This document shows, piece after piece, positions 1 through 37,116 of a stretch of DNA of 46,746 bases. Location: positions 935,107-981,852 of the forward strand of contig NC_090973.1 of assembly GCF_040807025.1 (NCBI RefSeq). Reading direction: 5' to 3'. The first letter of the stretch is position 1. The number at the start of each line of letters is the position of its first letter. The notes under the pieces are model-generated. The model was given only the letters and a program-made list of their open reading frames with translations. It had not been told where the DNA came from and ran no database searches. Origin of the DNA: Struthio camelus. Taxonomy: Eukaryota. The translations under genes were made by a program, and so were the position numbers.

Positions 1-1090
1 CCATGGTGGGTCCCGATGTCCCCTGAGGAGATGTTTTGCCCCCTAGTGACCTCACCTGCCCCACAGCAAGCTCACCCAACCCCCAGAGACCTCACCTGCC
101 CCCCGGTGACCTCACCCGCCCCAGTGAGGAGCTCATTTGCCCCATGGTGGGTCCTGAAGTCCCCCGAGGAGATGTTTTGCCCCCTAGTGACCTCCTCTGC
201 CCCTCGGTGACCTCACCTGCCCCCGTGATGAGTTCGTCTGCCCCATGGTGGGTCCCGATGTCCCCTGAGGAGATGTTTTGCCTCCTGATGACCTCACCTG
301 CCCCGCAGCAAGCTCACCCAACCCCCAGAGACCTCACCTGCCCCCCGGTGACCTCACCCGCCCCAGTGAGGAGCTCATTTGCCCCATGGTGGGTCCTGAA
401 GTCCCCCGAGGAGATGTTTTGCCCCCTAGTGACCTCCTCTGCCCCTCGGTGACCTCACCTGCCCCCGTGATGAGTTTGTCTGCCCCATGGTGGGTCCCGA
501 TGTCCCCTGAGGAGATGTTTTGCCCCCCGGCGACCTCCTCTGCCCCTCGGTGACCTCATCTGTCCCCCCGGTGACCTCACCCACCCCAGTGAGGAGCTCA
601 TCTGCCCCATGGTGGGTCCCGATGTCCCCTGAGGAGATGTTTTGCCTCCTGATGACCTCATCTGCCCTCCAGTGACCTCATCTGTCCCCCCGGTGACCTC
701 ACCTGCCCCCGTGATGAGCTCATCTGCCCCATGGTGGGTCCCAATGTCCCCTGAGGAGATGTTTTGCCCCCTAGTAACCTCCTCTGGCCCCCGGTGACCT
801 CACCCATCCCCATGATGAGTTCATCTGCCCCACGATGGGTTGAGATGTCCCCTGAGGAGATGTTTTGCCCCCTAGTGACCTCATCCGCCCCACAGCAAGC
901 TCACCCGCCCCCCAGAGACCTCACCTGCCCCCCGGCGACCTCACCCGCCCCCGTGATGAGCTCATCTGCCCCACGGTGAGTCCCAATGTCCCCTGAGGAG
1001 ATGTTTTGCCCCCTCGGCGACCTCCTCCACCCCCCGGTGACCTCCTCTGTCCCCCCCCCCTCCGGCGACCTCACCCACCCCACAGCAACC
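1..1090 (+). repeat. Tandem array of about 120-bp units (about 242-bp higher-order repeat), about 9 copies, derived from the MVP start-codon region
   Basis: Units recur at about 1, 140, 243, 383, 485, 605, 725, 832 and 965. Each carries ..gccccATGGtgggtcc..cacagcaagctcacc..acctcacctgccccccggtgacctcacccgcccc. These are the same blocks that flank the true ATG at 1080-1135. Confidence 0.8.
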
Positions 1091-1131
1091 TCACCTGCCC
1101 CCCGGGAGCCCGCCCGCCCCCCGGCCGCCCC

Positions 1132-1250
1132 ATGGAGGACCCCGTGATCCGCATCCCGCCCTACCACTACATCCACGTGCTCGACCTCAACTCCAACGTC
1201 ACCCGCGTCGAGGTCGGGCCCCTCACCTACATCCGCCAGGACCATGAGAG
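1132..1250 (+). CDS. MVP: Major vault protein, coding exon 1 (initiator ATG; [39 protein letters not shown] + 2 nt)
   Basis: Translation matches the vertebrate MVP N-terminus ([31 protein letters not shown]). ATG sits in context gccccATGG. Donor gag|GTGGGT at 1250/1251, phase 2. Confidence 0.85.
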
Positions 1251-1319
1251 GTGGGTGCTGGGGGGCCCGGCGGGGGCTATAGGGGACGGGGAGCCCCCCC
1301 CCCGCCGACGTCTCTGAGG

Positions 1320-4300
1320 GGCGTCTGGGGGGGGCCTCTATAGGGCGCTTTATGGGCCTACGGGGGCTCTGTGGGGTTGTGGGGTTCCTATAGGGCTTTT
1401 TAAGGCTGTGTGAGACCCTATAGGGGGTTCTTTAGGGCTTCGGGACGTCTATAGGGCTCTGCGGTTCCTATAGAGTCCTGCATGGCTCTGACAGGCTTTA
1501 CAATAAATTATATAGATAATATGATGTATCTATAGGACGTTGTGGTATCTATAGGACTCTATAAGGCCATGGGGGGGGTATATAAGGGACTCTCCAGAGT
1601 TAAGGAGCCTCTATAGGGCTCTGGGCTTCCTTCAGGGCTATGGGGAGTGTTGAAGGGTTCTTTAGGGCTGGGGGGGGGGCTATAGGATGTGGGGGGGGTA
1701 TGGAGGGACTCTATAGGGCTGCGGGGTCCCTATAGGATCCATGGGGAGGTGGGGGGGGTCTCTGTGGGGCTGAGGGGGCTCTATAGGGCTCCGGGGACCC
1801 TCTAGGGCTGTAAGGGGTGTTGAGGGGCTCTCTAGGGGTGTGTGGGGGGGGTCCCTATAGGGCCATAAGGAGTTTGAGGGGCTCTATAGGGTTGGGGGGG
1901 GTCCATAGGGCTACGGTGGGTGTTAGGGAGCTCTATAGGGCCGTAAGTACTTCTACAGGGCTGTGGGGGTTGGGGGGGCTTTATGAAACTATGGTGTTCC
2001 TATAGGGCCTGGCAGTATGTTGAGGTCTTTATAGGGAAGCGAGGTGCCTAGCGGGGTTTCTATAGGGTTATGGGGATGCTGGAGGGCTCTATAGAGCCTG
2101 GAAGAGGTGTTGGGGGGCTCTGTAGGGCTGTGGGGCCCCTCCAGGGCTGGAGGGGGTGTTGGGGGCCCTCTAGGGCTGTGGGGGCTCTATAGAGTCGTGG
2201 GGGGTGCTGGGGGGGGGTCCTGTAGGGCTGTGGGGCCCGTATAGGGCCAGGGGGTGTCAGAGGGCTCTATAGGTTGTGGGGGGTGGGTGCTGGGGGGCTC
2301 TATAGGGTGCTGAGGGGCATCAGGGGCTCCTATAGGGTTGTAGGGGGTCTGGGGGGCTCTATAGGGCACTAAGGGGGGTGGGGGACTCCTATAGGGCTGG
2401 TAGGGGGTGTGGGGGCCTCTCTAGGGTGCTAAGGTGTATTGGGGACTCCTATAGGGCTGGGGGGGCTGGGGGGGTTCTATAGGGTGCTAAGGGGTGTGGG
2501 GGACTCCTATAGGGGCTGGGGGGGCTCTATGGGGTGCTAAGGGGTGTGGGAGACTCCTATAGGGCTGGGGGGGCTCTATAGGGCACTAAGGGGTGTGGGA
2601 GACTCCTATAGGGCTGGGGGGGCTCTATAGGGCACTAAGGGGTGTGGGAGACTCCCATAGGGCTGGGGGGGCTCTATGGGGCACTAAGGGGTCTGGGAGA
2701 CTCCTATAGGGCTGGGGGAGTCTCTAGGGTGCTAAGGGGTCTGGGGGACTCCTATAGGGCTGGGGGGTCTCTAGGGTGCTAAGGGGTCTGGGGGGCTCCT
2801 ATAGGGCTCCTAGGGGGGCTGGGGGACTCCTATAGGGCTGGGGGGGTCTCTAGGGTGCTAAGAGGTCTGGGGGGCTCCTATAGGGCTCCTAGGGGGGCTG
2901 GGGGACTCCTATAGGGCTGGGGGGGTCTCTAGGGTGCTAAGGGGTCTGGGGGGGCTCCTATAGGGCTCCTAGGGGGGCTGGGGGACTCCTATAGGGCTGG
3001 GGGGGTCTCTAGGGGGCTAAAGGGTCTGGGGGGCTCCTATAGGGCTCCTAGGGGGGCTGGGGGACTCCTATAGGGCTGGGGGGGTCTCTAGGGTGCTAAG
3101 GGGTCTGGGGGGCTCCTATAGGGCTCCTAGGGGGGCTGGGGGACTCCTATAGGGCTGGGGGGGTCTCTAGGGTGCTAAGGGGTCTGGGGGACTCCTATAG
3201 GGGCTGGGGGGGCTCTATGGGGTGCTAAGGGGTGTGGGAGACTCCTATAGGGCTGGGGGGGCTCTATAGGGCACTAAGGGGTGTGGGAGACTCCCATAGG
3301 GCTGGGGGGGCTCTATGGGGCACTAAGGGGTGTGGGGGACTCCTATAGGGCTGGGGGAGTCTCTAGGGTGCTAAGGGGTCTGGGGGACTCCTATAGGGCT
3401 GGGGGGGCTCTATGGGGCACTAAGGGGTGTGGGGGACTCCTATAGGGCTGGGGGGGTCTCTAGGGTGCTAAGGGGTCTGGGGGACTCCTATAGGGCTCCT
3501 AGGGGGGCTGGGGACTCCTATAGGGCTGGGGGGGTCTCTAGGGTGCTAAGGGGTCTGGGGGACTCCTATAGGGCTGGGGGGTCTCTAGGGTGCTAAGGGC
3601 TCTGGGGGGCTCCTATAGGGCTCCTAAGGGGTCTGGGGGCTCCTATAGGGCTGGGGGGGTCTCTAGGGGGCTAAAGGGTCTGGGGGGCTCCTATAGGGCT
3701 CCTAGGGGGGCTGGGGACTCCTATAGAGCTGGGGGAGTCTCTAGGGTGCTAAGGGGTCTGGGGGACTCCTATAGGGCTGGGGGGTCTCTAGGGTGCTAAG
3801 GGCTCTGGGGGGCTCCTATAGGGCTCCTAGGGGGGCTGGGGGACTCCTATAGGGCTGGGGGGGTCTCTAGGGGGCTAAAGGGTCTGGGGGGCTCCTATAG
3901 GGCTCCTAGGGGGGCTGGGGACTCCTATAGGGCTGGGGGAGTCTCTAGGGTGCTAAGGGGTCTGGGGGGCTCCTATAGGGCTCCTAGGGGGGCTGGGGGA
4001 CTCCTATAGGGCTGGGGGGGCTCTAGGGTGCTAAGGGGACTGGGGGGCTCCTATAGGGCTCCTAGGGGGGCTGGGGGCTCCTATAGGGCTGGGGGGTCTC
4101 TAGGGTGCTAAGGGGTCTGGGGGGCTCCTATAGGGCTCCTAGGGGGGCTGGGGGACTCCTATAGGGCTGGGGGGGTCTCTAGGGTGCTAAGAGGTCTGGG
4201 GGGCTCCTATAGGGCTCCTAGGGGGGCTGGGGGACTCCTATAGGGCTGGGGGGGTCTCTAGGGTGCTAAGGGGTCTGGGGGGGCTCCTATAGGGCTCCTA

Positions 4301-5790
4301 GGGGGGCTGGGGGACTCCTATAGGGCTGGGGGGGTCTCTAGGGTCCTAAGGGGTCTGGGGGGCTCCTATAGGGCTCCTAGGGGGGCTGGGGGACTCCTAT
4401 AGGGCTGGGGGGGTCTCTAGGGTGCTAAGGGGTCTGGGGGGGCTCCTATAGGGCTCCTAGGGGGGCTGGGGGCTCCTATAGGGCTGGGGGGTCTCTAGGG
4501 TGCTAAGGGGTCTGGGGGGGCTCCTATAGGGCTCCTAGGGGGGCTGGGGGCTCCTATAGGGCTGGGGGGGTCTCTAGGGTGCTAAGGGGTCTGGGGGGCT
4601 CCTACAGGGCTCCTAGGGGGGCTGGGGGCTCCTATAGGGCTGGGGGGGTCTCTAGGGTCCTAAGGGCTCTGGGGGGCTCCTATAGGGCTCCTAGGGGGGC
4701 TGGGGGACTCCTATAGGGCTGGGGGGGTCTCTAGGGTGCTAAGGGGTCTGGGGGGCTCCTATAGGGCTCCTAGGGGGGCTGGGGGCTCCTATAGGGCTGG
4801 GGGGATCTCTAGGGTCCTAAGGGCTCTGGGGGGCTCCTATAGGGCTCCTAGGGGGGCTGGGGGACTCCTATAGGGCTGGGGGGGTCTCTAGGGTGCTAAG
4901 GGGTCTGGGGGGCTCCTATAGGGCTCCTAGGGGGGCTGGGGGACTCCTATAGGGCTGGGGGGGTCTCTAGGGTGCTAAGGGGTCTGGGGGGCTCCTATAG
5001 GGCTCCTAGGGGGGCTGGGGGCTCCTATAGGGCTGGGGGGGTCTCTAGGGTGCTAAGGGGTCTGGGGGGCTCCTATAGGGCTCCTGGGGGGGCTGGGGGC
5101 TCCTATAGGGCTGGGGGGGTCTCTAGGGTGCTAAGGGGTCTGGGGGACTTCTACAGGGCTCCTAGGGGGGCTGGGGGCTCCTATAGGGCTGGGGGGGTCT
5201 CTAGGGTGCTAAGGGCTCTGGGGGGCTCCTATAGGGCTCCTAGGGGGGCTGGGGGCTCCTATAGGGCTGGGGGGGTCTCTAGGGTGCTAAGGGGTCTGGG
5301 GGGCTCCTATAGGGCTCCTAGGGGGGCTGGGGGCTCCTATAGGGCTGGGGGGGTCTCTAGGGTGCTAAGGGGTCTGGGGGGCTCCTATAGGGCTCCTAGG
5401 GGGGCTGGGGGACTCCTATAGGGCTGGGGGGGTCTCTAGGGTGCTAAGGGGTCTGGGGGACTCCTATAGGGCTCCTAGGGGGGCTGGGGGCTCCTATAGG
5501 GCTGGGGGGTCTCTAGGGTGCTAAGGGGTCTGGGGGGCTCCTATAGGGCTCCTAGGGGGGCTGGGGCCTCCTATAGGGCTGGGGGGTCTCTAGGGTGCTA
5601 AGGGGTCTGGGGGGCTCCTATAGGGCTCCTAGGGGGGCTGGGGGACTCCTATAGGGCTGGGGGGGGTCTCTAGGGTGCTAAGGGGTCTGGGGGACTCCTA
5701 TAGGGCTGGGGGGGTCTCTAGGGTGCTAAGGGGTCTGGGGGGCTCCTATAGGGCTCCTAGGGGGGCTGGGGGGGTCTCCGAGGGGCTCCA
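1320..5790 (+). repeat. CTATAGGG-core minisatellite in MVP intron 1. It is degenerate at 1320-2400. At 2400-5790 it is a homogeneous unit of about 80 bp with about 40 copies.
   Basis: Unit: gggggactcctatagggctgggggggtctctagggtgctaaggggtctggggggctcctatagggctcctaggggggct, repeated nearly identically. Confidence 0.9.
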
Positions 5791-5897
5791 GGGCGGCGGG
5801 TGGCGCTGCGGGGGGGGGGTTCCCTAGGGCCCCCCGGGGAAGGGGAGGGGGGGTGCAGCGTAGGCACCTGCGTGGTGTCCGTCCCCCCGCACCCCAG

Positions 5898-6093
5898 GGT
5901 GGCCTTCGCCCCCGTGCGCATGGTGACGGTGCCGGCGCGGCACTACTGCACGGTGCTGCACCCCGTGGCCCGGGCGCCCGGCGGGGAGGCCCTGCTGGAC
6001 GGCACCGGGCAGGTCCGGCTGCGGCACGGCGACCTGGAGGTGCGCCTGGCCCAGGAGCCCTTCCCTCTCTACCCCGGCGAGCAGCTCCAGCAG
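5898..6093 (+). CDS. MVP: MVP coding exon 2 (R)[65 protein letters not shown]
   Basis: Acceptor accccag|G at 5897/5898 completes the Arg codon split from exon 1. Strong identity to the human MVP exon (FAPMRMVTVPPRHYCTV...[25 protein letters not shown]). Donor cag|GTACCT at 6093/6094. Confidence 0.9.
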
Positions 6094-6099
6094 GTACCT

Positions 6100-9000
6100 A
6101 TGGCCCCTATAGACCCCCTATAGACCCTATAGCCCTCCCCGCGACCCCTCCGTCCCCGGTCCGGCTGGGGCTCGGCGACCTGGAGGTGCGCCTGGCCCAG
6201 GAGCCCTTCCCTCTCTACCCCGGCGAGCAGCTCCAGCAGGTACCTATGGCCCCTATACACCCCCTATAGCCCCTATAGACCCTATAGCCCTCCCCGCGAC
6301 CCCTCCGTCCCCGGTCCGGCTGCGGCACGGCGACCTGGAGGTGCGCCTGGCCCAGGAGCCCTTCCCTCTCTCCCCCGGCGAGCAGCTCCAGCAGGTACCT
6401 ATGGCCCCTATACACCCCCTATAGCCCCTATAGCCCTCCCCGCGACCCCTCCGTCCCCGGTCCGGCTGCGGCACGGCGACCTGGAGGTGCGCCTGGCCCA
6501 GGAGCCCTTCCCGCTCTACCCCGGCGAGCAGCTCCAGCAGGTACCTATGGCCCCTATACACCCCCTATAGACCCCCTATAGCCCCTATAGCCCTCCCCGC
6601 GACCCCTCCGTCCCCGGTCCGGCTGCGGCACGGCGACCTGGAGGTGCGCCTGGCCCAGGAGCCCTTCCCGCTCTACCCCGGCGAGCAGCTCCAGCAGGTA
6701 CCTATAGCCCCTATACACCCCCTATAGCCCCTATAGACCCTATAGCCCTCCCCGCGACCCCTCCGTCCCCGGTCCGGCTGCGGCACGGCGACCTGGAGGT
6801 GCGCCTGGCCCAGGAGCCCTTCCCTCTCTACCCCGGCGAGCAGCTCCAGCAGGTACCTACGGCCCCTATAGACCCCCTATAGCCCCTATAGCCCTCCCCG
6901 CGACCCCTCCGTCCCCGGTCCGGCTGCGGCTCGGCGACCTGGAGGTGCGCCTGGCCCAGGAGCCCTTCCCGCTCTACCCCGGCGAGCAGCTCCAGCAGGT
7001 ACCTATGGCCCCTATACACCCCCTATAGCCCCTATAGCCCCTATAGCCCTCCCCGCGACCCCTCCGTCCCCGGTCCGGCTGCGGCACGGCGACCTGGAGG
7101 TGCGCCTGGCCCAGGAGCCCTTCCCTCTCTCCCCCGGCGAGCAGCTCCAGCAGGTACCTATGGCCCCCATACACCCCCTATAGCCCCTATAGCCCCTATA
7201 GCCCCTATAGCCCTCCCCGCGACCCCTCCGTCCCCGGTCCAGCTGCGGCTCGGCGACCTGGAGGTGCGCCTGGCCCAGGAGCCCTTCCCTCTCTCCCCCG
7301 GCGAGCAGCTCCAGCAGGTACCTACGGCCCCTATACACCCCCTATAGCCCCTATAGCCCCTATAGCCCTCCCCGCGACCCCTCCGTCCCCGGTCCGGCTG
7401 CGGCTCGGCGACCTGGAGGTGCGCCTGGCCCAGGAGCCCTTCCCTCTCTACCCCGGCGAGCAGCTCCAGCAGGTACCTATGGCCCCTATACACCCCCTAT
7501 AGCCCCTATAGACCCTATAGCCCTCCCCGCGACCCCTCCGTCCCCGGTCCGGCTGCGGCTCGGCGACCTGGAGGTGCGCCTGGCCCAGGAGCCCTTCCCT
7601 CTCTACCCCGGCGAGCAGCTCCAGCAGGTACCTATGGCCCCTATAGACCCCCTATAGCCCCTATAGCCCCTATAGCCCTCCCCGCGACCCCTCCGTCCCC
7701 GGTCCGGCTGGGGCTCGGCGACCTGGAGGTGCGCCTGGCCCAGGAGCCCTTCCCTCTCTCCCCCGGCGAGCAGCTCCAGCAGGTACCTATGGCCCCTATA
7801 CACCCCCTATAGCCCCTATAGACCCCCTATAGTCCCTATAGCCCTCCCCGCGACCCCTCCGTCCCCGGTCCGGCTGCGGCTCGGCGACCTGGAGGTGCGC
7901 CTGGCCCAGGAGCCCTTCCCTCTCTACCCCGGTGAGCAGCTCCAGCAGGTACCTACGGCCCCTATACACCCCCTATAGCCCCTATAGCCCCTATAGCCCT
8001 CCCCGCGACCCCTCCGTCCCCGGTCCGGCTGGGGCTTGGCGACCTGGAGGTGCGCCTGGCCCAGGAGCCCTTCCCTCTCTACCCCGGCGAGCAGCTCCAG
8101 CAGGTACCTACGGCCCCTATACACCCCCTATAGCCCCTATAGCCCCTATAGACCCTATAGCCCTCCCCGCGACCCCTCCGTCCCCGGTCCGGCTGCGGCT
8201 CGGCGACCTGGAGGTGCGCCTGGCCCAGGAGCCCTTCCCTCTCTACCCCGGCGAGCAGCTCCAGCAGGTACCTATGGCCCCTATACACCCCCTATAGCCC
8301 CTATAGCCCCTATAGACCCTATAGCCCTCCCCGCGACCCCTCCGTCCCCGGTCCGGCTGCGGCACGGCGACCTGGAGGTGCGCCTGGCCCAGGAGCCCTT
8401 CCCTCTCTACCCCGGCGAGCAGCTCCAGCAGGTACCTATGGCCCCTATACACCCCCTATAGCCCCTATAGCCCCTATAGCCCTCCCCGCGACCCCTCCGT
8501 CCCCGGTCCGGCTGCGGCACGGCGACCTGGAGGTGCGCCTGGCCCAGGAGCCCTTCCCTCTCTCCCCCGGCGAGCAGCTCCAGCAGGTACCTACGGCCCC
8601 TATAGACCCCCTATAGCCCCTATAGCCCCTATAGCCCCTATAGCCCTCCCCGCGACCCCTCCGTCCCCGGTCCGGCTGCGGCACGGCGACCTGGAGGTGC
8701 GCCTGGCCCAGGAGCCCTTCCCTCTCTACCCCGGCGAGCAGCTCCAGCAGGTACCTATGGCCCCTATACACCCCCTATAGCCCCTATAGCCCCTATAGCC
8801 CCTATAGCCCTCCCCGCGACCCCTCCGTCCCCGGTCCGGCTGGGGCTTGGCGACCTGGAGGTGCGCCTGGCCCAGGAGCCCTTCCCTCTCTCCCCCGGCG
8901 AGCAGCTCCAGCAGGTACCTATGGCCCCTATACACCCCCTATAGCCCCTATACACCCCCTATAGCCCCTATAGCCCTCCCCGCGACCCCTCCGTCCCCGG

Positions 9001-10075
9001 TCCGGCTGGGGCTTGGCGACCTGGAGGTGTGCCTGGCCCAGGAGCCCTTCCCTCTCTCCCCCGGCGAGCAGCTCCAGCAGGTACCTACGGCCCCTATACA
9101 CCCCCGATAGCCCCTATAGACCCCCTATAGCCCCTATAGTCCCTATAGCCCTCCCCACGACCCCTCCGTCCCCGGTCCGGCTGCGGCTCGGCGACCTGGA
9201 GGTGCGCCTGGCCCAGGAGCCCTTCCCTCTCTCCCCCGGCGAGCAGCTCCAGCAGGTACCTATGGCCCCTATACACCCCCTATAGCCCCTATAGCCCTCC
9301 CCGTGACCCCTCCGTCCCCGGTCCGGCTGCGGCTTGGCGACCTGGAGGTGCGCCTGGCCCAGGAGCCCTTCCCTCTCTCCCCCGGCGAGCAGCTCCAGCA
9401 GGTACCTACGGCCCCTATAGACCCCCTATAGCCCCTATAGACCCCCTATAGCCCCCTATAGCCCCTATAGCCCTCCCCGCGACCCCTCCGTCCCCGGTCC
9501 GGCTGCGGCTCGGCGACCTGGAGGTGCGCCTGGCCCAGGAGCCCTTCCCTCTCTCCCCCGGCGAGCAGCTCCAGCAGGTACCTACGGCCCCTATAGACCC
9601 CCTATAGCCCCTATAGACCCCCTATAGCCCCTATAGCCCCTATAGCCCTCCCCGCGACCCCTCCGTCCCCGGTCCAGCTGCGGCACGGCGACCTGGAGGT
9701 GCGCCTGGCCCAGGAGCCCTTCCCTCTCTACCCCGGCGAGCAGCTCCAGCAGGTACCTATGGCCCCTATACACCCCCTATAGCCCCTATAGCCCTCCCCG
9801 CGACCCCTCCGTCCCCGGTCCGGCTGCGGCACGGCGACCTGGAGGTGCGCCTGGCCCAGGAGCCCTTCCCGCTCTACCCCGGCGAGCAGCTCCAGCAGGT
9901 ACCTACGGCCCCTATAGACCCCCTATAGACCTATAGACCCCCTATAGCCCTCCCCGCGACCCCTCCGTCCCCGGTCCGGCTGCGGCACGGCGACCTGGAG
10001 GTGCGCCTGGCCCAGGAGCCCTTCCCTCTCTCCCCCGGCGAGCAGCTCCAGCAGGTACCTACGGCCCCTATACAT
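6100..10075 (+). repeat. About 25 tandem copies (150-165 bp each) of the 3' 81 nt of MVP exon 2 plus the splice donor CAG|GTACCT plus (cccctatag)n
   Basis: ggcgacctggaggtgcgcctggcccaggagcccttccc...gagcagctccagcaggtacct recurs at about 6174, 6318, 6469, 6626, 6783, 6927, 7085, 7249, 7400, 7561, 7712, 7878, 8037, 8197, 8358, 8518, 8679, 8841, 9006, 9184, 9342, 9510, 9676, 9828 and 9982. Confidence 0.95.
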
Positions 10076-10479
10076 CTTCTCGTAGCCTGCCATAACTGCT
10101 GCAGTTAACCCCGGTCGTGCTGTCGTTTCTATAGGCTCCATGAACCACTATAGCTCCTTCAGCAACCCCACGGGCTCTTACAGCTCCTCTAGGCCCTATT
10201 GCCCCCTATAGCTCCTCTGGCCACTCAATGGGCTCCTATAGCTCCTCCGGGCTCCACAACCTCCCCCTGCCCGGTTTCCTATAGGCACTATGGGTCTCTC
10301 GCGGTCTCCTATAGGCTCCGTAACCCCCTATAGCTCTTCTAACCACTTGATGGGCTCCTATGGCCCCCCCCCAGGCTCCACAACCCCCCCCATTCCCTAT
10401 AGCTCCTATGGCCTCCTCATGGCTTCCTATAGGCTCTGTGTTCCCCTATAGCCGCTGTAGCCACCCCATGGGCTCCTAT

Positions 10480-11575
10480 AGCTGCTATAAGCTCCGCGGC
10501 ACCTGTAGCCGCCCCCAGCCACCCTTGTCCCCTGGGTGTCCCTGCATGACCCTCTGCCCCTGGTGTCACCCGCTGTCCCCTGGGTGTCACCCCCATGCCT
10601 GGTGTCCCCCACTGTCCCCTGGGTGTCCACCTGCCCCCCTGGGTGTCACCCCCATGCCTGGTGTCCCCCACTGTCCCCTGGGTGTCCACCTGTCCCCCGG
10701 TGTCACCTGCTGTCCCCGGGTGTCATCCCCATCCCTGGTGTCACCCACTGTCCCCTGGGCGTCATCTCCATCCCCCGTGTCCCCCACCATCCCCTGGGTG
10801 TCCACCTGTCCCGTGGGTGTCATCTCCATCCCCGGTGTCACCCACTGTCCCCTGAGTGTCCACCTGTCCTATGGGTGTCATCTCCATCCCCGGTGTCCCC
10901 CACCATCCCCTGGGTGTCATCTCCATCCCTGGTGTCCCCCACCATCCCCTGAGTGTCCACCTGTCCTATGGGTGTCATCTCCATCCCCGGTGTCCCCCAC
11001 CGTCCCCTGGGTGTCATCTCCATCCCCGGTGTCCCCCACCATCCCCTGGGTGTCCACCTGTCCCGTGGGTGTCATCTCCATCCCCAGTGTCCCCCACCGT
11101 CCCCTGGGTGTCATCTCCATCCCCGATGTCATCTGGTGTCCCCTGGGTGTCCACCTGTCCTATGGGTGTCATCTCCATCCCCAGTGTCCCCCACCGTCCC
11201 CTGGGTGTCATCTCCATCCCCGATGTCATCTGGTGTCCCCTGGGTGTCCACCTGTCCCGTGGGTGTCATCTCCATCCCTGGTGTCCCCCACCGTCCCCTG
11301 GGTGTCATCTCCATCCCCAGAGTCCCCCACTGTCCCCTGGGTGTCCACCTGTCCCGTGGGTGTCATCTCCATCCCCAGTGTCCCCCACCGTCCCCTGGGT
11401 GTCATCTCCATCCCTGGTGTCCCCCACCGCCTCCTGGGTGTCCACCTGTCCCGTGGGTGTCATCTCCATCCCTGGTGTCCCCCACCATCCCCTGGGTGTC
11501 CACCTGTCCCCTGGGTGTCATCTCCATCCCTGGTGTCCCCCACTGTCCCCTGGGCGTCCGCCTGAACCCCGGGCG
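10480..11575 (+). repeat. About 97-bp tandem repeat, about 11 copies, ending at the exon 3 acceptor (MVP intron 2)
   Basis: gtgtccacctgtcc..gggtgtcatctccatcccc(g/t)gtgtcccccacc recurs at 10621, 10797, 10950, 11047, 11150, 11247, 11344 and 11441. Confidence 0.85.
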
Positions 11576-11594
11576 TCACCCGCCTTGCCAACAG

Positions 11595-11718
11595 GACGTG
11601 ACGCCGCTGCGGGTGGTGCCGGCCGACACGGCGCTGCGCCTCCGCGCCCTGCTCGACTTCGAGGCCGACGACGGCACCCGCTTCGTGGCCGGCGACGAGT
11701 GGCTCTTCGAGGGCCCCG
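11595..11718 (+). CDS. MVP: MVP coding exon 3 [41 protein letters not shown](G)
   Basis: Acceptor ccaacag|GAC. Matches human [42 protein letters not shown]. Donor ccccg|GTGAGT, phase 1. Confidence 0.9.
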
Positions 11719-11804
11719 GTGAGTGGCGGGGGGCACCCGGGCCGGGAGGGCGGGGGTGGGTGCCACCAGCCCGGCGTGACCCCCCCGCCGTCCCTCCTCC
11801 GCAG

Positions 11805-11936
11805 GCACCTACATCCCGCGCAAGGAGGTGGAGGTGGCCGAGACGCTGCAGGCCACCATCATCGGCCCCAACCAGGCCGTGCGGCTGCGGGCGCGCAAGG
11901 AGTGCGCCGACCGCGAGGGCGCCCGCCGCGTCACAG
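11805..11936 (+). CDS. MVP: MVP coding exon 4 (G)[43 protein letters not shown](G)
   Basis: Acceptor tcctccgcag|GC. Matches human [33 protein letters not shown]. Donor cacag|GTGCCC. Confidence 0.9.
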
Positions 11937-11939
11937 GTG

Positions 11940-13010
11940 CCCCCCGCCGCCCCTGGGACCCTCCGGGGACCCCCCGGCACCCATGGGACCCCCTCAACAC
12001 CCATGGCACCATCCAACACCCATGGGACCTTCATCCTGTCCCCAGCACCCATGGGACCCCCCAACACCCATGGGACCCCCTCAACACCCATGGCACCACC
12101 CAACACCTATGAGACCTTTATCCTGTCCCTGGTGCCCCTGGGAACCCCCCAACACCCCTGGGACCCCCCCAACACCCATGGCACCACCCAACACCCATGG
12201 GACCCCCTCAACACCCATGGCACCACCCAACGCCCATGAGACCTTCATCCTGTCCCTGGCACCCCTGGGACCCCCCAGCACCCATGGCACCACCCAACAC
12301 CCATGGAACCTTCATCCTGTTCCCGGCACCCCGGGACCCCCCAGCACCCATGGGACCCCCTCAACACCCACGGCACCACCCAACACCCATGGGACCTTCA
12401 TCCTGTCCCCAGCACTCCTGGGACCCCCCAACACCCATGGCACCATCCAACACCCATGGGACCTTTATCCTGTCCCCAGCACCCCTGGGACCCCCCAGTG
12501 CCCATGGGACCCCCAGCACCCATGGGACCCCCCCCAACACCCATGGCACCACCCAACACCCATGAGACCTTCATCCTGTTCCCGGCACCCCGGGACCTCC
12601 CAGCACCCATGGGACCCCCTCAACACCCATGGCACCACCCAACACCCATGGGACCTTTGTCCTGTCCCCGGCACTCCGGGACCCCCCCCTTCCCCACCCA
12701 ACACCCCTGGGACTCTCATCCTCCCCCCAGCACACTTGGGACCCCCCTCAGTGCCCCCCAGCACCGTTGGGACCTCATGGCACCCCCCCCAGCAGCCATG
12801 GGACCCCCATCCTTCCTCCAGCACCCCTAAGACCCCCTTGTCCCCTCCCTCCAGCACCCAAAAGACCCCAATGCCCACAAAGCCCCCAATACCCATAAGA
12901 CCTCCAGGCCTCCAGCACCCATAAGATCTCCCCCAGCACCCCTGGGGCCCCCCCGGCACCCCTAGGACCCCCCCCAGCACCCCTGGGGCCCCCACACCGA
13001 GCGCCCCGTG
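11940..13010 (+). repeat. Minisatellite (24-60-bp units: cacccatgggaccccc / cacccatggcaccacc) filling MVP intron 4
   Basis: Dense recurrence of ccatgggacc and ccatggcacc motifs. Confidence 0.8.
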
Positions 13011-13020
13011 CCCCCACCAG

Positions 13021-13115
13021 GCGAAGAGTGGCTGGTGAAGCGGGTGGGCGCCTACCTGCCCGGCGTCTACGAAGAGGTGCTCGACGTGGTGGACGCCTTC
13101 GTCCTCACTGAGAAG
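13021..13115 (+). CDS. MVP: MVP coding exon 5 (G)[31 protein letters not shown]
   Basis: Acceptor cccccaccag|GC. Matches human [31 protein letters not shown]. Donor gaag|GTACGG, phase 0. Confidence 0.9.
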
Positions 13116-13197
13116 GTACGGCCGGCACCCACGGGTGACGCCTCGCCGGGCCGGTGTCACCCGCCCGCCCGCCCTCACCCGTCCCTGTCACCCGCAG

Positions 13198-13434
13198 AAA
13201 GCCCTGCACCTTCGGGCCACGAGGACCTTCCGGGACGCCCAGGGCATGGTGCGGCGCACGGGCGAGGAGTGGCTGGTGACGCAGGCGCAGAGCGAGGCCT
13301 ACATCCCCGACGTCTTTGAGGAGGTGGTGGCCGAGGTGGCCGTCACCACCCTGGGGCCCCGGCAGTACTGCGTCGTCCTCGACCCCGTGGGGCCTGACGG
13401 CAAGCCCCAGCTGGGCCAGCAGCGCGTCGTCAAG
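13198..13434 (+). CDS. MVP: MVP coding exon 6 [79 protein letters not shown]
   Basis: Acceptor cacccgcag|AAA. The 79-codon exon is colinear with human [27 protein letters not shown]...[19 protein letters not shown]. Donor caag|GTGGGT. Confidence 0.9.
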
Positions 13435-13444
13435 GTGGGTGCCG

Positions 13445-14500
13445 CCCGCCCGAGGGTGGCCCTCCTGGGTCCACCCTGGGGGATGGACCACCGAGGAGGT
13501 GGCCGCGGGTGGCCTTGAGGGACCTCAATGGGCTCCTGAGGGGCTCAGGGTGACGCTGAGGCATGCTAAGGTGGCCCTGAGGGGGCTGAGGTGGCCTTCA
13601 AGGTTTTCAAGAGCCCTGAGGGGGGGTCAGGGTGGCCCTGAGGGACACTAAGGTGGCCCCAAGAGGTTCAGGGTGGCACCAGAGGCCCTCAATGGACCCC
13701 TAAGGTGGCCCTGAGGGGCTCAGGGTGGCACTGAGAGAAACTGAGGTGGCCCTGAGGGAGCTCAGATGGCCTTGAATGTCCTCAATCTCTAAGGTGCCCC
13801 TGAGGGGGTCGGGGTGGCCCCGAGAGATGCTAAGGGGGGGTCACAAGGGACCCCACCATGCCAGTGATGTGTTCCCATGGTGTCCCCATGTCCGCACCAA
13901 GCCATTGACATGTGCCTGTGGCATCCCCATGTCCCCGCCATGCTGGTGGCACGTCCCCATGGTGTCCCCATGTCCCCGTCAAGCCACTGATGTGTCCCCA
14001 CGGCATTCCCATGACTCCACCATGCTGGTGGCACGTCCACATGGTGTCCCCGTGTCCCCGTCAAGCCATTGACGTGTCCCCACGGCATTCTCATGACTCC
14101 ACCATGCTGGTGGCACATCCCTATAGTGTCCCCATGTCCCTGTCAAGCCACTGATGTGTCCCCACGGCATGTCCATGACTCCACCATGCTGGTGGCACGT
14201 CCCCATGGTGTCTCCATATCCCCCCCCAAGTCACTGATGTGTCCCCATGGCATTCCCATGACTCCACCATGCTGGTGGCACATCCCCATGGTGTCCCCGT
14301 GTCCCCGTCAAGCCACTGACGTGTCCCCACGGCATTCTCATGACTCCACCATGCTGGTGGCATGTCCCCATGGAGTCCCCATGTCCCTGTCAAGCCATTG
14401 ACATGTCCCCACGGCATCCCCATGACTCCACCATGCTGGTGGCACGTCTCCATGGAGTCCCCGCTGTGCCAGTGACGTGTCCCCACCGTGTCCCCTCGTC
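13445..14500 (+). repeat. MVP intron 6: 20-40-bp ggtggccctgagggggctca repeats (13445-13840), then about 4.5 copies of a 138-bp unit (13850-14500) derived from the exon-7 acceptor region
   Basis: The unit gtccccgtcaagccactgacgtgtccccacggcattc..accatgctggtggcacgtccccatggtgtcccc is mirrored at the true acceptor gccagtgacgtgtccccaccgtgtcccctcgtccccag|. Confidence 0.8.
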
Positions 14501-14505
14501 CCCAG

Positions 14506-14631
14506 GGCGAGAAGTCCTTCTTCCTGCAGCCGGGCGAGCGGCTCCAGGCGGGCATCCAGGACGTCTATGTGCTGGCTGAGGACGAGGGGCTGCTGCTGCA
14601 GGCGCTGCAGACCCTCACCCACCCCGACGAG
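14506..14631 (+). CDS. MVP: MVP coding exon 7 [42 protein letters not shown]
   Basis: Acceptor ctcgtccccag|GGC. Matches human [41 protein letters not shown]. The in-frame read-through hits a stop at about 14715, so a donor is required. gacgag|GTGCCC at 14631/14632 is the first in-phase GT. Confidence 0.8.
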
Positions 14632-14639
14632 GTGCCCGG

Positions 14640-15510
14640 GGGCAACTGGGGCTCCGGGGTGGGGGGGGGCAACTGGGAGCCCTGGGGGCGACTGGGACCT
14701 TGGGGAGGCAATTGAGACCTTTGGGGGCAACTGGGGTCTCTGGGGGGCAACTGGGACCCTGGGGGGGGCAACTGGGACCTTGTGGGGGTGCAACTGGGAC
14801 CCTAGGGAGGGCAACAGAGACCTTGGGGGCAATGGGGGCCCCTGGGGGACACAGGGGACCTGGGGGACCCAGGGGTGGCCGAGCCAGTTGGAACATCTGG
14901 TGGTGCGTGGGGGGCAATTATGTCCCCAACCCGAGGGGTGGCAGGGCCCTGTGTCCCCAAAAGGGGTGGCAGCCCTGTCCACATGTCCCCAAGGGGGTGG
15001 TAGGGAGGATCCTCATGTCCCCAAGGGGGTGGCAGCCCTGTCCACATGTCCCCAAGGGGGTGGTAGGGAGGATCCTCATGTCCCCAAGGGGGTGGCAGCC
15101 CCATCCCTGTGTCCCCAAGGGGGTGGCAGGAGGATCCTCATGTCCCCAAGGGGGTGGCAGCCCTGTCCACATGTCCCCAAGGGGGTGGTAGGGAGGATCC
15201 TCATGTCCCCAAGGGGGTGGCAGCCCTGTCCACATGTCCCCAAGGGGGTGGCAGGAGGATCCTCATGTCCCCAAGGGGGTGGCAGCCCCATCCCTGTGTC
15301 CCCAAGGGGGTGGCAGGAGGATCCTCATGTCCCCAAGGGGGTGGCAGCCCTGTCCACATGTCCCCAAGGGGGTGGCAGGAGGATCCCCATGTCCCCAAGG
15401 GGGTGGCAGCCCCATCCCTGTGTCCCCAGGGGGGTGGCAGGAGGATCCTCATGTCCCCAAGGGGGTGGCAGCCCCATCCCCATGTCCCCAAGGGGGTGGC
15501 AGGGACGGGT
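14640..15510 (+). repeat. MVP intron 7: ggggcaactgggacc 30-bp repeats, then about 62-bp gtccccaagggggtggcagccctgtccacat repeats
   Basis: Regular recurrence at 14966, 15033, 15093, 15159, 15219, 15283, 15403 and 15463. Confidence 0.85.
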
Positions 15511-15614
15511 AACAGGGCACCACCGCCCCGTCCCCAGCGGGTGACCCGGGGGGTGGTGGGGGTCCCGGGCCGGGGAGGACGGGACGGACGGTGACGCGGC
15601 GGCGCGGTGCCCAG

Positions 15615-15773
15615 GAGGGGACGGAGGTGCGGCGGCGGGCGGGCGAGCGCTGGCTGGCCCGCGGCCCCCTCGAGTACGTGCCGCCGGCCGAGGTGGCCGT
15701 GCTGGAGCGGCGCCGCGCCGTGGCCCTGGGCGAGGGCGAGGGCATCTACGTGCGCGACGTCCGCACCGGCAAG
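15615..15773 (+). CDS. MVP: MVP coding exon 8 [53 protein letters not shown]
   Basis: Matches human ..[42 protein letters not shown]. Donor gcaag|GTCAGA at 15773/15774. The 5' boundary is ambiguous. The phase-0 acceptor gtgcccag|GAG (15614/15615) gives a linker similar in length to human. An alternative phase-0 acceptor, aacag|GGC at 15515/15516, would add about 33 Gly/Arg-rich residues. Confidence 0.65.
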
Positions 15774-15779
15774 GTCAGA

Positions 15780-18545
15780 CCCTGCGCCGCTCCCCCCCGG
15801 AGACCCTAGAGACCCCCAGAGACCCTGCAGACCCCCCTTAACCCCCTACAGTTGCCCCCAAACCCTCTAGAGCCCCTAGAGACCCCCCAGAGACCCTATA
15901 GACCCCTCAGAGCCCCTAGAGACCCCCTTAACCCCCTACAGACCCCCCGAACTCCATAGAGCCCCTAGAGACCCCCCAGAGACCCTGCAGACCCCCCTTA
16001 ACCCCCTACAGATGCCCCCAAACCCTCTAGAGCCCCTAGAGACCCCCCAGAGCCCTAGAGACCCCTTAACCCCCAACAGAGCCCCCCAAACTCCGTAGAG
16101 CCCCTAGAGACCCCCAGAGCTCCTAGAGACCCCCCTTAACCCCCTACAGACCCCATTAACCTCCTATAGACCCCCAAACTCCTTAGAGTCCTTAGAGACC
16201 CCCAAGAGCCCCTAGAGACCCCCTTAACCCCCTACAGACCCCCCGAACTCCATAGAGCCCCTAGAGACCCCCAGAGACCCTGCAGACCCCCCCTTAACCC
16301 CCTACAGTTGCCCCCAAACCCTCTAGAGCCCCTAGAGACCCCTCAGAGACCCTGCAGACCCCCCTTAATCCCCTATAGTTGCCCCCAAACCCTCTAGAGC
16401 CCCTAGAGACCCCCCAGAGACCCTATAGACCCCTCAGAGCCCCTAGAGACCCCTTAACCCCCAACAGAGCCCCCCAAACTCCGTAGAGCCCCTAGAGACC
16501 CCCAGAGACCCTGCAGACCCCCCTTAACCCCCTACAGATGCCCCCAAACCCTCTAGAGCCCCTAGAGACCCCTCAGAGACCCTAGAGACCCCCTTAACCC
16601 CCTACAGACCCCCCGAACTCCATAGAGCCCCTAGAGACCCCCCAGAGACCCTGCAGACCCCCCTTAACCACCTACAGATGCCCCCAAACCCTCTAGAGCC
16701 CCTAGAGACCCCCCAGAGCCCCTAGAGACCCCTCAGAGCCCCTACAGACCCCTTAACCCCCTACAGACCCCCCGAACTCCATAGAGCCCCTAGAGACCCC
16801 CAGAGACCCTGCAGACCCCCCTTAACCCCCTAGAGACCCCACTAACCTCCTATAGACCCCCAAACTCCTTAGAGCCCTTAGAGACCCCCCAGAGCCCCTA
16901 CAGACCCCCTTAACCCCCTAGAGACCCCCCTTAACCCCCTAGAGATCCCCAAACTCCCTAGAGCCCCTAGAGACCCCCAGAGACCCTAGGGATCCTCCTT
17001 AACCCCCTAGAGATCCCCAAACTCCCTAGAGCCCCTAGAGACCCCCAGACCCCCTAGGGACCCCTTTAACCCCCTAGAGCTCCCCTTAATCTCCTAGAGA
17101 CCCCCCCAAACTCCTTGGAGCCCCTAGAGACTCACCAGAGCCTCTAGAGACCCCCTTAACCTCCTATAGACCCCCCAATCTATGTAAAGCCCCTAGAGCC
17201 CCCCAGAGCCCTTAGAGACTCCTCTTAACCCCCTATAGACCCCCCAAACCCTCTAGAGCCCCTAGAGACCCCCCAGAGCCCCTATAGACTCCTCAGAGCC
17301 CCTAGAGACCCCTTAACCCCCTACAGATGCCCCCAAACCCTCTAGAGCCCCTAGAGACCCCCAGATACCCCAAAGACTCCTGTTAACCCTCTACAGACCC
17401 CCCCAAACTCCCTAGAGAGCCCTTAGGGACCCCCCCCAACTCCCTAGAGACCCCCCAGAGCCCCTAGAGACTCCCTTAACCCCGTATAGAGCCCCCCCCG
17501 AACTCCCTAGAGCCCCTGGAGACCTTCCTTGACCCCCTACAGACCCCTCAAAGCCTCCTAGAGCCCCTAGAGACCCCCCAAACCCCCTATAGACACCCCA
17601 AATCTCCTAGAGCCCTTAGAGACCCCCCCAGAGCCCCTAGAGACCCCCTTAAGCTCCTATAGACCCCCCTCGAGCCCCTATAGGCTCTCTAGAGCTCTTA
17701 TAGATCTCCGTTAACCCTCTACAGACCCCCACCCAAACCCGTAGAGAGCCCCCGAGCCCCTATAGAGCCCCGTAACCCCTCCTAGACCCCTGCAGAGCTC
17801 CAAACCCCCCAGTGACCCCCTGCAGCGCCCTCAGTCCCAGTGCCCCCCTATAGCGCTCTCAGCCCCCCTCCCAGGGCCCCCAAACCCCTCCCAGTGCTCC
17901 CAGTGCCTCCCAGTCCCCTCCCAATGTTCCTGGTCCCTCCCAGTCCTCTCCCAGCCCCCCAGCAATTCCCTCCCAGTGTTCCCAGTCCCCTTCCCAGTCC
18001 CTCCCAGGCCCCTCCCAGGCCCCCCAGCTCCCCTCCCCGTGCTCCCAGTACCACCAGTCCTTCCCAGTTCCCTCCCAGTGCCCCCAGTCCCTCCCAGTGC
18101 TCCCAGTGCCCCCAGTTCCCTCCCAGTGCCCCCAGTCCCTCCCAGCCCTCCTCCCAGTGCCTCCAGTTCCCTCCCAGTGCTCCCAGTCCCCTCCTAGTCC
18201 CTTTCAGCACTCCCAGTTCCTCTCAGCCCCCCTCCCAGTGCTCCCAGTGCCCCTAGTCCCTCCCAGTTCCCTCCCAGTGCTCCCTGTACCTCCAGTTCCC
18301 TTGCAGTTCCTTTCAGCTCCCCTCCCAGTGCTCCCAGTCCCTCCCAGTCCCTCCCAGCCCCCCTTCCCATGCCCCCAGTTCCCTCCCAGTGCTCCCAGTA
18401 CCCTCCCATTCCCCACCTAGTCCCTCCCAGCCCCCTCCCAGTGCTCTCCGTACCTCCAGTTCCCTCCCAGTGCCCTCCCAGTCCCTCCCAGCCCCCTCCC
18501 CAGCGCTCCCAGTGCCCCCAGTCCCCTCCCAGTGCCCCCCCCCGG
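15780..18545 (+). repeat. MVP intron 8: about 85-90-bp ccctagagaccccccagagaccct(g/a)(c/t)agacccccttaaccccctacag repeat (15780-17810), then 20-24-bp ctcccagtgctcccagtccc repeats (17810-18545)
   Basis: Direct tandem recurrence throughout. The CTAGAG/CTATAG cores are related to the intron 1 and intron 2 satellites. Confidence 0.85.
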
Positions 18546-29255: not shown

Positions 29256-29393
29256 GTGAAGCTGCTGCAGGGCCTGGGGCTGCAGTCGACGCTCATCACC
29301 GACGGCGCCGCCCCCCTCAACCTCTTCGCCACCGCCCGGGGGCTGCTGGGGCTGGTCCCGCCCCCCGGCCCCGCCCCCGGCCCCGCCCCCTGA
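29256..29393 (+). CDS. MVP: MVP terminal coding exon [45 protein letters not shown] (TGA at 29391-29393)
   Basis: Acceptor tgtcccgcag|GTG. Matches human [33 protein letters not shown]. The stop is followed 22 nt later by AATAAA. Confidence 0.9.
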
Positions 29394-29414
29394 GCGGCCC
29401 CGCCCCCCGAGCGC

Positions 29415-29420
29415 AATAAA
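29415..29420 (+). terminator. MVP: MVP polyadenylation signal AATAAA (3' UTR only about 40-50 nt)
   Basis: Canonical AATAAA lies 22 nt after the TGA. A GT-rich stretch follows at 29440-29465. Confidence 0.75.
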
Positions 29421-29424
29421 GGCG

Positions 29425-30010
29425 GCCGTGACGTCATGGCGGTGGTGTCCTAGCTTTGTGGGGGGGGGGGGGAAGGGGCTGTGATGTCACCACGCTGGGG
29501 ACACGGCAGCTGTGATGTCATAGTCCCGGGGGGCGGGGCTTGTGCACTCAGTGGGTGGGCTGGCAGGGCTGTGATGTCACGGGGGGGGTGGGCGGGCTGC
29601 TGGCTATGATGTCACAGCTCCGGGGGCCCGAGAGGGTTGGGGCGGGACGCTCGGGTGTGACATCATTGGGCTGGGGGGGTGGGGCTGTGATGTCACAGAG
29701 CGGAGCGATGTCAGGCTGGGGAGTGATGTCGTCAGGCCCAGGTGTGACGTCATCGGGCCGGGGCGTGGCGTCGTGGGGCCGGGGTGTGACGTCATCGGGC
29801 TAGGTGTGACGTCATCCGGTCCGGGCGCGATGCCATCGAGGTGCAGCAGCGTGCCGTGGGGCTGGGGCGTGACATCATCGGGCCGAGTGTGACATCAGTG
29901 GGGCCAGGTGTGATGTCATCGAGCCAGAGCGTGAGCTCATGGCGCCTGGGCATGACGTTATTGGGCCCGGATGTGACCTAGTCGGGCCGGGCGTGATGTC
30001 ACGGGGCCGA
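29425..30010. promoter_or_regulatory. Tandem array of about 22 units of a 22-bp repeat GGGYGTGAYGTCAYCGGGCC carrying CRE palindromes (TGACGTCA) or their CpG-decayed variants
   Basis: Perfect TGACGTCA at 29429-29436, 29745-29752, 29787-29794 and 29807-29814. The other units carry TGATGTCA, TGACATCA or TGACCTCA. Confidence 0.7.
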
Positions 30011-30229
30011 GGTGTGACCTCATGGGGCGGGGGGGGGGGCGGCGCGGGGGCCCCGGACGCCTGGGTCCCCAAGCAGGAGGCGGGGCCGGAGCTCCCGAAG
30101 GCTCTTTTAATACTGAGGTTATTGCTGCTGCGCGGGGGCACCCCGGGGGCCCAGGCGTCCCCGGGGCCGGGGGGCTGCTACGGTCCTGGGGACCCCCGGG
30201 GACACCCGAGGGGGCTCGTGGGGACCCGG

Positions 30230-31990: not shown

Positions 31991-32125
31991 TGCTCCTGAG
32001 GATCCCGCCACACCCCCCCCCCCCACCCCAGGAGCTCCTCGTACCTCCTTTTCTCCCTCCCAAGCGTCGAGCACCCCCGGGCGGCCCAGCGAGCGGGCGG
32101 CAGCACCCCGGGGTGCCGGGCGGCG

Positions 32126-32386: not shown

Positions 32387-32399
32387 CTGCCGGGGCGAC

Positions 32400-35197
<2,798 letters not shown>

Positions 35198-35417: not shown

Positions 35418-35419
35418 CT

Positions 35420-37010: not shown

Positions 37011-37032
37011 GCCCAGGCCAGGCCGTACTCAC

Positions 37033-37116
37033 TGGTCATCGATGACATGGTGGCAGGAGCTGGAGATGATGTATCCGGCCGTGGTGGCCATGATGGCCTG
37101 CACCGAGGACACCAGC
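37033..37116 (-). CDS. TLCD3B: TLCD3B coding exon 2 (R)LVSSVQAIMATTAGYIISSSCHHVIDD(Q)
   Basis: Minus-strand acceptor ccccccag|G and donor gacca|GTGAGTACGG. Matches human LVSSVQAIMASTAGYIVSTSCKHIIDDQ. Confidence 0.8.

Follow-up and report, generated by a model that had tools for sequence, protein, structure and literature searches.

Intron 2 of the major vault protein (MVP) gene of the ostrich (Struthio camelus) contains 25 tandem copies of the 81-nt 3' end of exon 2, each followed by the splice donor of that exon, and is a new and unusually large case of exon stuttering, an architecture that had already been described. The array lies in a stretch of 46,746 nt (assembly GCF_040807025.1, contig NC_090973.1, positions 935,107 to 981,852 of the forward strand; hereafter, the window), which was identified as the MVP locus with a tblastn search using an MVP probe and a splice-site model. 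The plus-strand gene model has 16 exons (1132-29393) and encodes an uninterrupted protein of 848 aa, which matches the NCBI ostrich MVP with 100% identity; the latter adds only an N-terminal extension of 70 aa. Exon 2 is uninterrupted despite the array, as the whole 848-aa open reading frame (ORF) is the same as in the annotated protein. Here it is proposed, as the probable explanation, that the array is an exon-stuttering minisatellite that was seeded once before the palaeognath radiation, has turned over in concert with its parent exon, and is tolerated as a burden for splicing.

Exon 2 tail copies in intron 2 of the ostrich MVP

The 16-mer CTCCAGCAGGTACCTA has 26 exact occurrences on the plus strand and none on the minus strand, corresponding to the authentic exon 2 donor (6093/6094, the slash marking the splice position) and 25 copies of it, with a spacing of 146-176 nt (mode of 155). 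The 81-nt exon 2 tail recurs in all of the 25 downstream units with 0-5 mismatches per copy, and copies 5, 15, and 17 have none. Judged by majority agreement, the homology between exon and array begins at -82 from the donor, one base before the 81-nt tail. The spacers consist of GTACCTAYGG, followed by 2-6 CCCCTATAG/CCCCTATACA repeats and then by CCCTCCCCGCGACCCCTCCGTCCCCG, and the last unit of the array ends 20 nt past its own donor. Tandem Repeats Finder (TRF) independently detects the array (6012-10074, period 155, ~22-26 copies, 90-91% matches), and its head-to-tail GC-rich units with interspersed variant units are those of a classical GC-rich minisatellite (variable number tandem repeat). 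The copy number of 25 is the count in a single assembled haplotype. The first-pass annotation of the window had placed the end of exon 2 at 6093 (CAG/GTACCT), followed by about 25 copies of the 81-nt tail with an identical donor; both statements are borne out, the former by the model with this donor, which gives the 848-aa protein, and the latter by the 16-mer count and TRF. Its description of tandem units is also correct, their length range being 146-176 nt instead of the 150-165 bp proposed. Downstream of the array, the match to merganser intron 2 (Table 1) indicates that the start of the remaining intron (10075-10556) marks ancestral intron sequence. The palindromic hexamer CTATAG, with ~6 occurrences expected from dinucleotide content, was found 220 times, all within positions 1-18000 of the window, and other AT-containing palindromic hexamers were at or under expectation.

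The terms "sequence stuttering" and "exon stuttering" were introduced for avian dot chromosomes by Hron et al. (bioRxiv September 2025; Genome Biol Evol February 2026, PMC12954441), and the earlier impression that no described gene had an architecture like this is therefore superseded. In chicken, exon stuttering affects 115 genes and 236 introns, with an exon part of 20-187 nt (median 36) in 1-44 copies (median 4) over a span of 112-23,555 bp (median 1,751), and more than 90% of the sources are positioned no farther than 1 base from an exon border (PMC12954441). The published stutter screen (blastn-short of the exon against the proximal intron, length of at least 20 and bit score of at least 42.1) was applied to the window and to the MVP loci of emu and rhea and gave 25 matches for exon 2 of ostrich, 16 in emu, and 20 in rhea, and no matches for the other 15 ostrich MVP exons. 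The copied segment stops exactly at the end of the exon and runs via CAG/GTACCTA into the intron, and the host intron is covered by repeats and GC-rich (92% TRF coverage, GC of 0.68). As in the stutters of Hron et al., for example intron 18 of chicken PHF8, a lateral part of an exon with its splice site and adjacent intron is tandemly repeated in the neighboring intron, the exon itself being intact, the source being at the exon border, and the intron being almost wholly GC-rich tandem repeat. In contrast with the chicken set on which that screen was made, the gene and species here are MVP and ostrich, and the array exceeds the chicken medians in copies (25 vs. 4), exon part (81-82 nt vs. 36 nt), and span (4.1 kb vs. 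1.75 kb). Also, ostrich, emu, and rhea, which represent three palaeognath lineages, have it as an orthologous array that changes in concert with the parent exon, whereas Hron et al. inferred recent expansions that are independent in related species. MVP was not found in the text of their supplement on the 115 chicken genes, figure images not being covered, and it is likely, but not certain, that it is absent from that list.

Intronic minisatellites of dot chromosomes offer a second comparison. In the introns of dot chromosomes, tandem repeats account for more than 70% of the sequence and show an enrichment of G-quadruplex (G4) motifs (Smeds et al. 10.1101/2025.10.17.683159; Huang et al. 2023, PMC9974502). 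The window is similar to them, with 76% tandem repeat and G4-capable runs over 49-57% of the arrays of introns 1 and 2; however, those minisatellites are purely intronic or intergenic and have short units (multiples of 10-11 bp), whereas the MVP unit of ~155 nt contains coding sequence and a functional-looking donor. Each unit of the intron 2 array has about two C-run motifs capable of forming G4 on the template strand, and these motifs cover 57% of the array.

Orthologous arrays in palaeognaths and a pattern of concerted evolution with exon 2

The MVP loci of emu, lesser rhea, ptarmigan (Lagopus), merganser (Mergus), cuckoo (Phaenicophaeus), and turtle (Malaclemys) were compared with that of ostrich. 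The first-pass annotation had suggested a comparison of intron 2 in related species, and this comparison revealed exon 2 tail copies in intron 2 of emu (16 copies, period 155, intron of 4565 nt) and rhea (20 copies, period 151, intron of 5162 nt), the ostrich intron with its 25 copies having 5501 nt. No exon 2 tail array was found in MVP intron 2 of the three neognaths (898 nt in ptarmigan, 1063 nt in merganser, and 856 nt in cuckoo) or of the turtle (73 nt). The copied segment begins at -82 in ostrich, -78 in emu, and -82 in rhea. Among living palaeognaths, the first split separates ostrich from all the others, rheas are the next to branch off, and the crown age is ~62-68 Ma (PMC12368558). 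The distal ends of the arrays are of different kinds: the rhea array (locus 5113-5170) stops within an exon-tail copy, ~40 nt in, the emu array after a full but degenerate spacer, and the ostrich array 20 nt past a donor. The distal boundaries have been remodeled independently in the three species.

The exon tails of ostrich, emu, and rhea have fixed differences at positions 12, 18, 39, 54, and 63, and 84-100% of the copies of each species carry the state of their own exon at each of these. Copy identity is 0.96-0.99 within species, as compared with 0.90-0.93 between species. The arrays of rDNA, snRNA, and histone genes are known cases of concerted evolution, and the MVP copies resemble them in being more alike within than between species and in having species-specific substitutions fixed across copies. 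However, unlike in rDNA-type arrays, only the terminal copy is functional, as part of a coding exon, and the others are intronic and free of coding constraint. All seven differences among the exons are synonymous (0:7 nonsynonymous to synonymous), in contrast with the variants confined to the arrays, with 12 nonsynonymous and 7 synonymous (Fisher p = 0.006). These array-only variants include a Y to S replacement in 11 of 25 ostrich and 12 of 16 emu copies, as well as an A to C change in a His codon that is common to emu and rhea. The copies are non-coding, and the sequence comparison favors, as the simplest reading, that array and exon tail evolve in concert, with purifying selection on the exon copy only.

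The donor 9-mer is kept in 60 of the 61 decoys of the three species. Excess conservation of the decoy donors was not seen, as 1 of 27 sites in the donor and 21 of 225 in the rest of the tail are variable (p = 0.48; p = 0.28-0.48 over the tests made). Since the decoy donor is no more conserved than the copied tail, donor identity is explained by homogenization.

Some variants have a distribution of their own. The His codon (tail positions 13-15) is changed in many copies, to CTC or CTT in ostrich, CCT in emu, and CCC in rhea, and at tail position 59, a TAC to TCC change is frequent in the ostrich and emu arrays; both changes replace an A flanked by C, and they could be either shared ancestral array variants or the result of a mutational hotspot. 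At position 24, 12 of the 16 emu copies have G, as in ostrich, while the emu exon has C. The order of this position along the emu array (locus 5198-7605) is C G G C G G C G G G C G G G G G, which suggests a three-unit higher-order repeat in the proximal part of the array, as multi-unit unequal exchange would give.

Predicted consequences of the array for splice donor choice

Splicing from the first donor gives the 848-aa ORF of the NCBI ostrich model, whose junction of exons 2 and 3 also occurs in the emu MVP model (94% identical); neither model carries alternative-isoform labels. A protein-database search with the exon 2-exon 4 peptide (151 aa) found no ratite fragments derived from transcripts, the best matches being at most 72% identical over the whole query. 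The strength of the exon 2 donor is middling to weak among the 15 donors of MVP, according to a log-odds score that ranks donors within MVP only. Read-through to any later donor leads to a TAG at codon 115. The spacers hold 89 TATAG/ acceptor-like sites, and 86 of the 89 pseudo-exons from these sites to a decoy donor give a stop at residues 108-273. The 107-nt pseudo-exon that had been predicted for each unit was recovered in 25 of 25 units, and it shifts the frame in all of them. The real acceptors are CAG in 15 of 15 cases, and the decoy acceptors are TAG/C or TAG/A.

The first-pass annotation had also pointed to the choice among 26 equivalent donors, which is a legitimate puzzle, since the intron-proximal rule would pick the wrong donor. 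For identical donors in cis more than 45 nt apart, the intron-proximal one wins almost completely at high U1 occupancy (Hodson et al. 2012, PMC3413131). The MVP array is similar to the substrates of that study in having identical cis donors more than 45 nt apart and one acceptor; however, the intron-proximal donor wins in those substrates, whereas the annotated ostrich MVP product requires the most distal of the 26, and the MVP donor is weaker (7/9) and stands in a natural multi-exon context. Local RNA structure was considered as a discriminator of the first donor and rejected, as the probability of the 9-mer being unpaired is 0.35-0.37 for the authentic donor, with means of 0.31-0.43 for the decoys. 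A cluster of mutually exclusive exons was also rejected, because only the 3' 82 of 196 nt are copied, 86 of the 89 pseudo-exons break the frame or create a stop, and the copies show no coding constraint.

Recursive splice sites, or ratchet points, are known from Drosophila Ubx and from the RS-exons of vertebrates. Similarly to these, the AG/GT of each MVP unit (CAGCAG/GTACCT) would regenerate the same upstream donor. In contrast, the adjacent pyrimidine tract is weak (fraction of 0.47 at -20 to -4; the final 14 nt also hold three other AGs), the run rich in pyrimidines (0.85) is farther upstream at -38 to -19, and the intron is short. From these sequence features, recursive splicing at the array units is formally possible, and the units are not assigned to that class. 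The recursive or decoy splicing raised in the first-pass annotation is not supported, the annotated proteins of ostrich and emu corresponding to use of the first donor only.

Proposed origin of the array and alternative explanations

In the proposed origin, a segment of ~150 nt across the boundary of MVP exon 2 and intron 2 (82 exon nt, the donor, and ~70 intron nt) would have been tandemly duplicated and would have grown to 25 copies in intron 2, within a GC-rich, G4-prone, and repeat-saturated region of a small chromosome. The seeding duplication most likely occurred once, before the palaeognath radiation ~62-68 Myr ago, and a single origin in the palaeognath ancestor is what the comparison of the three arrays favors. 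Later turnover may have proceeded through unequal exchange or gene conversion, in which the authentic exon tail would take part as the terminal copy and be the only one under selection, so that synonymous exon changes could spread jointly with array changes in each species and nonsynonymous variants would stay in the array. The G4 motifs in each unit, the excess of CTATAG, and a CCTATAGCCCC-type seed at the start of intron 2 of Lagopus fit the replication-stress or recombination models of stuttering discussed by Hron et al. (PMC12954441), as well as the G4 enrichment of dot chromosomes. For splicing, the array would be a tolerated burden and not a device. The first donor would be chosen by exon definition, as the sole donor paired across the 196-nt exon with a strong CAG acceptor; a weak donor lacking +4A and +5G probably needs this help to hold U1, and the decoys would be poorly occupied. 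Use of a decoy would lead to a premature stop and to removal of the transcript by nonsense-mediated decay, which we infer to clear residual mis-splicing.

Several observations weigh against this explanation. The intron-proximal rule (PMC3413131) predicts the use of the last donor, decoy 25, and not of the first of 26. The decoy acceptors, with a pyrimidine content of 0.69, do not stand apart from the real ones (0.41-0.82), and the 107-157-nt pseudo-exons therefore look definable, which weakens the exon-definition argument. Part of the basis of the annotated proteins may be homology and not transcripts. With respect to the single origin, Hron et al. favor independent expansions in related species (PMC12954441), ostrich, emu, and rhea differ in the spacer 3' halves and in the distal ends of their arrays, and the similarity of the spacers is dominated by the ancestral CCCCTATAG microsatellite. 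Spacer alignments were tried as proof of common origin and set aside as not decisive, their significance being due only to the shared CCCCTATAG motif.

An unlikely, though credible, alternative is that ostrich, emu, and rhea each underwent a recent stutter of their own exon at an intron 2 start predisposed by CCCCTATAG, with no exchange between exon and array being needed. Each array matching its own species' exon would then be trivially explained, the differing spacers and array ends as well as the CCTATAGCCCC-type seed already present in Lagopus would be accounted for, and the orthologous stuttering introns seen by Hron et al. are indeed structurally unlike between relatives and highly polymorphic in length within chicken (PMC12954441). 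However, this requires the same exon, the same side, and nearly the same breakpoint (-82 in ostrich and rhea, -78 in emu) in three lineages, with periods of 155, 155, and 151 in ostrich, emu, and rhea; given published exon parts of 20-187 nt, two further arrays falling within 4 nt is improbable, ~(7/168)^2 by our estimate. Separate stutters also leave aside the derived array-only variants common to species, the ostrich-like G at position 24 of most emu copies where the emu exon has C, and the second intron 2 array that is present in all three species.

It is quite improbable that the array has been retained over more than 60 Myr and serves in the processing of the MVP pre-mRNA, providing recursive or U1-loading sites or, together with the intron 1 array, folding exon 2 for the choice of the first donor or for back-splicing. 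A weaker version, in which stutter arrays exchange sequence with their parent exon, is likelier. As a selected splicing device in the strict sense, with recursive (ratchet) sites or a platform for U1 recruitment by which the transcript would be protected or paced, the array is a highly improbable candidate, even though every unit regenerates the same donor behind a pyrimidine-rich run (0.85) located 19-38 nt upstream, 60 of 61 decoys have an intact donor, and all three palaeognath lineages sampled have the array. The donors are conserved no better than the copied tail (p = 0.48), the 20 nt before the AG have a pyrimidine fraction of only 0.47 and three competing AGs, the copy number and spacers vary freely, and the intron has only 5.5 kb, with three neognaths and a turtle managing an intron 2 of 73-1063 nt and no array. 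An assembly artefact, either a collapsed or over-expanded repeat or a misjoin, is hardly credible. GC-rich minisatellite regions are hard to sequence and the copy number comes from one haplotype; however, the units vary in length and carry structured variants, unlike stuttered polishing errors, and the flanks are collinear with exons 2 and 3. The orthologous arrays of emu and rhea come from independent assemblies (GCA_036370855.1 and GCA_028389875.1) and exclude an artefact, a possibility raised in the first-pass annotation, for the presence of the array.

The description of exon stuttering dates only from 2025-26 and concerns chicken, where the phenomenon was read as evolutionarily recent, and by the published ranges the MVP array is among the largest. 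Under the explanation preferred here, the orthology of a stutter array can extend over the oldest divergence among palaeognath birds, and the concerted evolution of the array with the exon implies a flow of sequence between an intronic minisatellite and a coding exon, of which only the exon copy is under coding constraint. If true, this exchange would mean that genes on dot chromosomes receive coding mutations, as well as GC-biased synonymous change, directly from the minisatellites in their introns. MVP also constitutes a natural experiment in 5' splice-site choice, with 26 identical donors and the apparent use of the one disfavored by the rule, three palaeognaths with different copy numbers as replicates, and array-less neognaths as controls.

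Repeat context and other features of the MVP locus

Tandem repeats cover 76% of the window (TRF), which has a GC content of 0.69, and the introns longer than 400 nt consist of 34-98% tandem repeat each. In the exons, TRF coverage is limited to two places, namely exon 2, whose tail belongs to the array (53%), and the last exon, at its 3' end (28%). The features around exon 2 are given in Table 1.

Table 1. Coordinates of the intron 2 array and neighboring features of the ostrich MVP locus (positions in the window).
Feature	Position	Strand	Remarks
MVP coding exon 1	1132-1250	+	ATG at 1132; tblastn and splice-site model; translation equal to NCBI ostrich MVP
Intron 1 G-rich tandem array	2410-5773	+	78/156-nt units with CTATAGGG; intron stuttering; TRF
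MVP coding exon 2	5898-6093	+	196 nt, intact; acceptor ccccag/GG, donor CAG/gtacct; encodes VAFAPVRMV...PGEQLQQ
Source segment (last 82 nt of exon 2)	6012-6093	+	First (selected) repeat copy; homology start at -82
Authentic exon 2 donor	6091-6099	+	CAG/GTACCT; 7/9 consensus match, without +4A and +5G; gives intact ORF
Exon-stuttering array	6094-10074	+	25 units of spacer, 81-nt exon 2 tail copy, and decoy donor CAG/GTACCTA
Representative 155-nt unit (copy 10)	7473-7627	+	Spacer 7473-7546, tail copy 7547-7627, decoy donor 7627/7628
25th and last decoy donor	10052-10060	+	Of all decoys, nearest to the exon 3 acceptor
Intron 2 outside the array	10075-10556	+	Start (tcttctcgtagcct) alignable to merganser intron 2 (p = 0.002 in local alignment with shuffled controls)
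Second, purely intronic tandem array	10557-11578	+	GGTGTC[AC]CC motif; periods 19/58/97; TRF
MVP coding exon 3	11595-11718	+	Acceptor ttgccaacag/GACGTG (11594/11595); opens with GACGTGAC

The intron 1 array contains 97 CTATAGGG motifs, with a GC skew of +0.43 and G4-capable motifs on the sense strand covering 49%, and its motif is reverse-complementary to the spacers of intron 2. Exon 2 is located between these complementary arrays, G-rich with CTATAGGG in intron 1 and C-rich with CCCTATAG spacers in intron 2, and the same arrangement was found in emu and rhea. Many pairs of inverted arms exist between the two introns, of up to 55 nt and 76% complementarity, and the predicted duplex of intron 1 and intron 2 RNA has -111 kcal/mol, as compared with -87 +/- 6 with shuffled spacers. 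Complementary repeats flanking an exon are a recipe for its circularization or looping. The GC skew changes sign between introns 1 (~+0.43) and 2 (~-0.3 to -0.5) in six of six birds; since these include neognaths without arrays, the strand asymmetry is older than the repeats.

The second intron 2 array (GGTGTC[AC]CC) occupies the same position in the 3' part of intron 2 in emu (locus 8203-9574) and rhea (5641-7304), and it is absent in the three neognaths compared. Being common to ostrich, emu, and rhea, it indicates that ordinary intron stuttering can also be orthologous across palaeognaths. The MVP loci of the palaeognaths consist of 76-88% tandem repeat and extend over ~28-32 kb, and those of ptarmigan, merganser, cuckoo, and turtle have 3-29% and 9-15 kb; the stuttering state of MVP is therefore lineage-specific and not general to birds.

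Saturation with tandem repeats is a signature of avian dot-chromosome euchromatin, and the records bearing MVP have 4.79 Mb in ostrich and 3.31 Mb in emu. In the human 16p11.2 region, the neighbors of MVP presumably include ALDOA, PPP4C, and KAT8. These three genes belong to dot chromosome 38 in chicken (Hron et al., supplements to PMC12954441).

The region of the window downstream of MVP (29400-46746) is 72% tandem repeat and has 50 ORFs of at least 110 aa over both strands, and no neighboring gene was identified in it. The ten longest of these ORFs (at least 184 aa, at 29.4-46.7 kb) had no Pfam match; they appear to be products of GC-rich repeats and were rejected as genes.

Tandem repeats also reach both ends of the MVP coding sequence. 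A 5' tandem repeat at 1-1131 (periods 20/101/122/141/242; 98% TRF coverage) lies directly 5' of the conserved MVP start, and the NCBI models of ostrich (918 aa) and emu (879 aa) start at ATGs within it, with extensions that are not present in other species; these repeat-encoded N-terminal extensions are probably an annotation artefact. At the other end, a tandem repeat at 29256-29396 extends into the last coding exon, the C-terminal tail of MVP varies between ostrich, emu, and neognaths, and turnover of this repeat may be shaping the MVP C-terminus.

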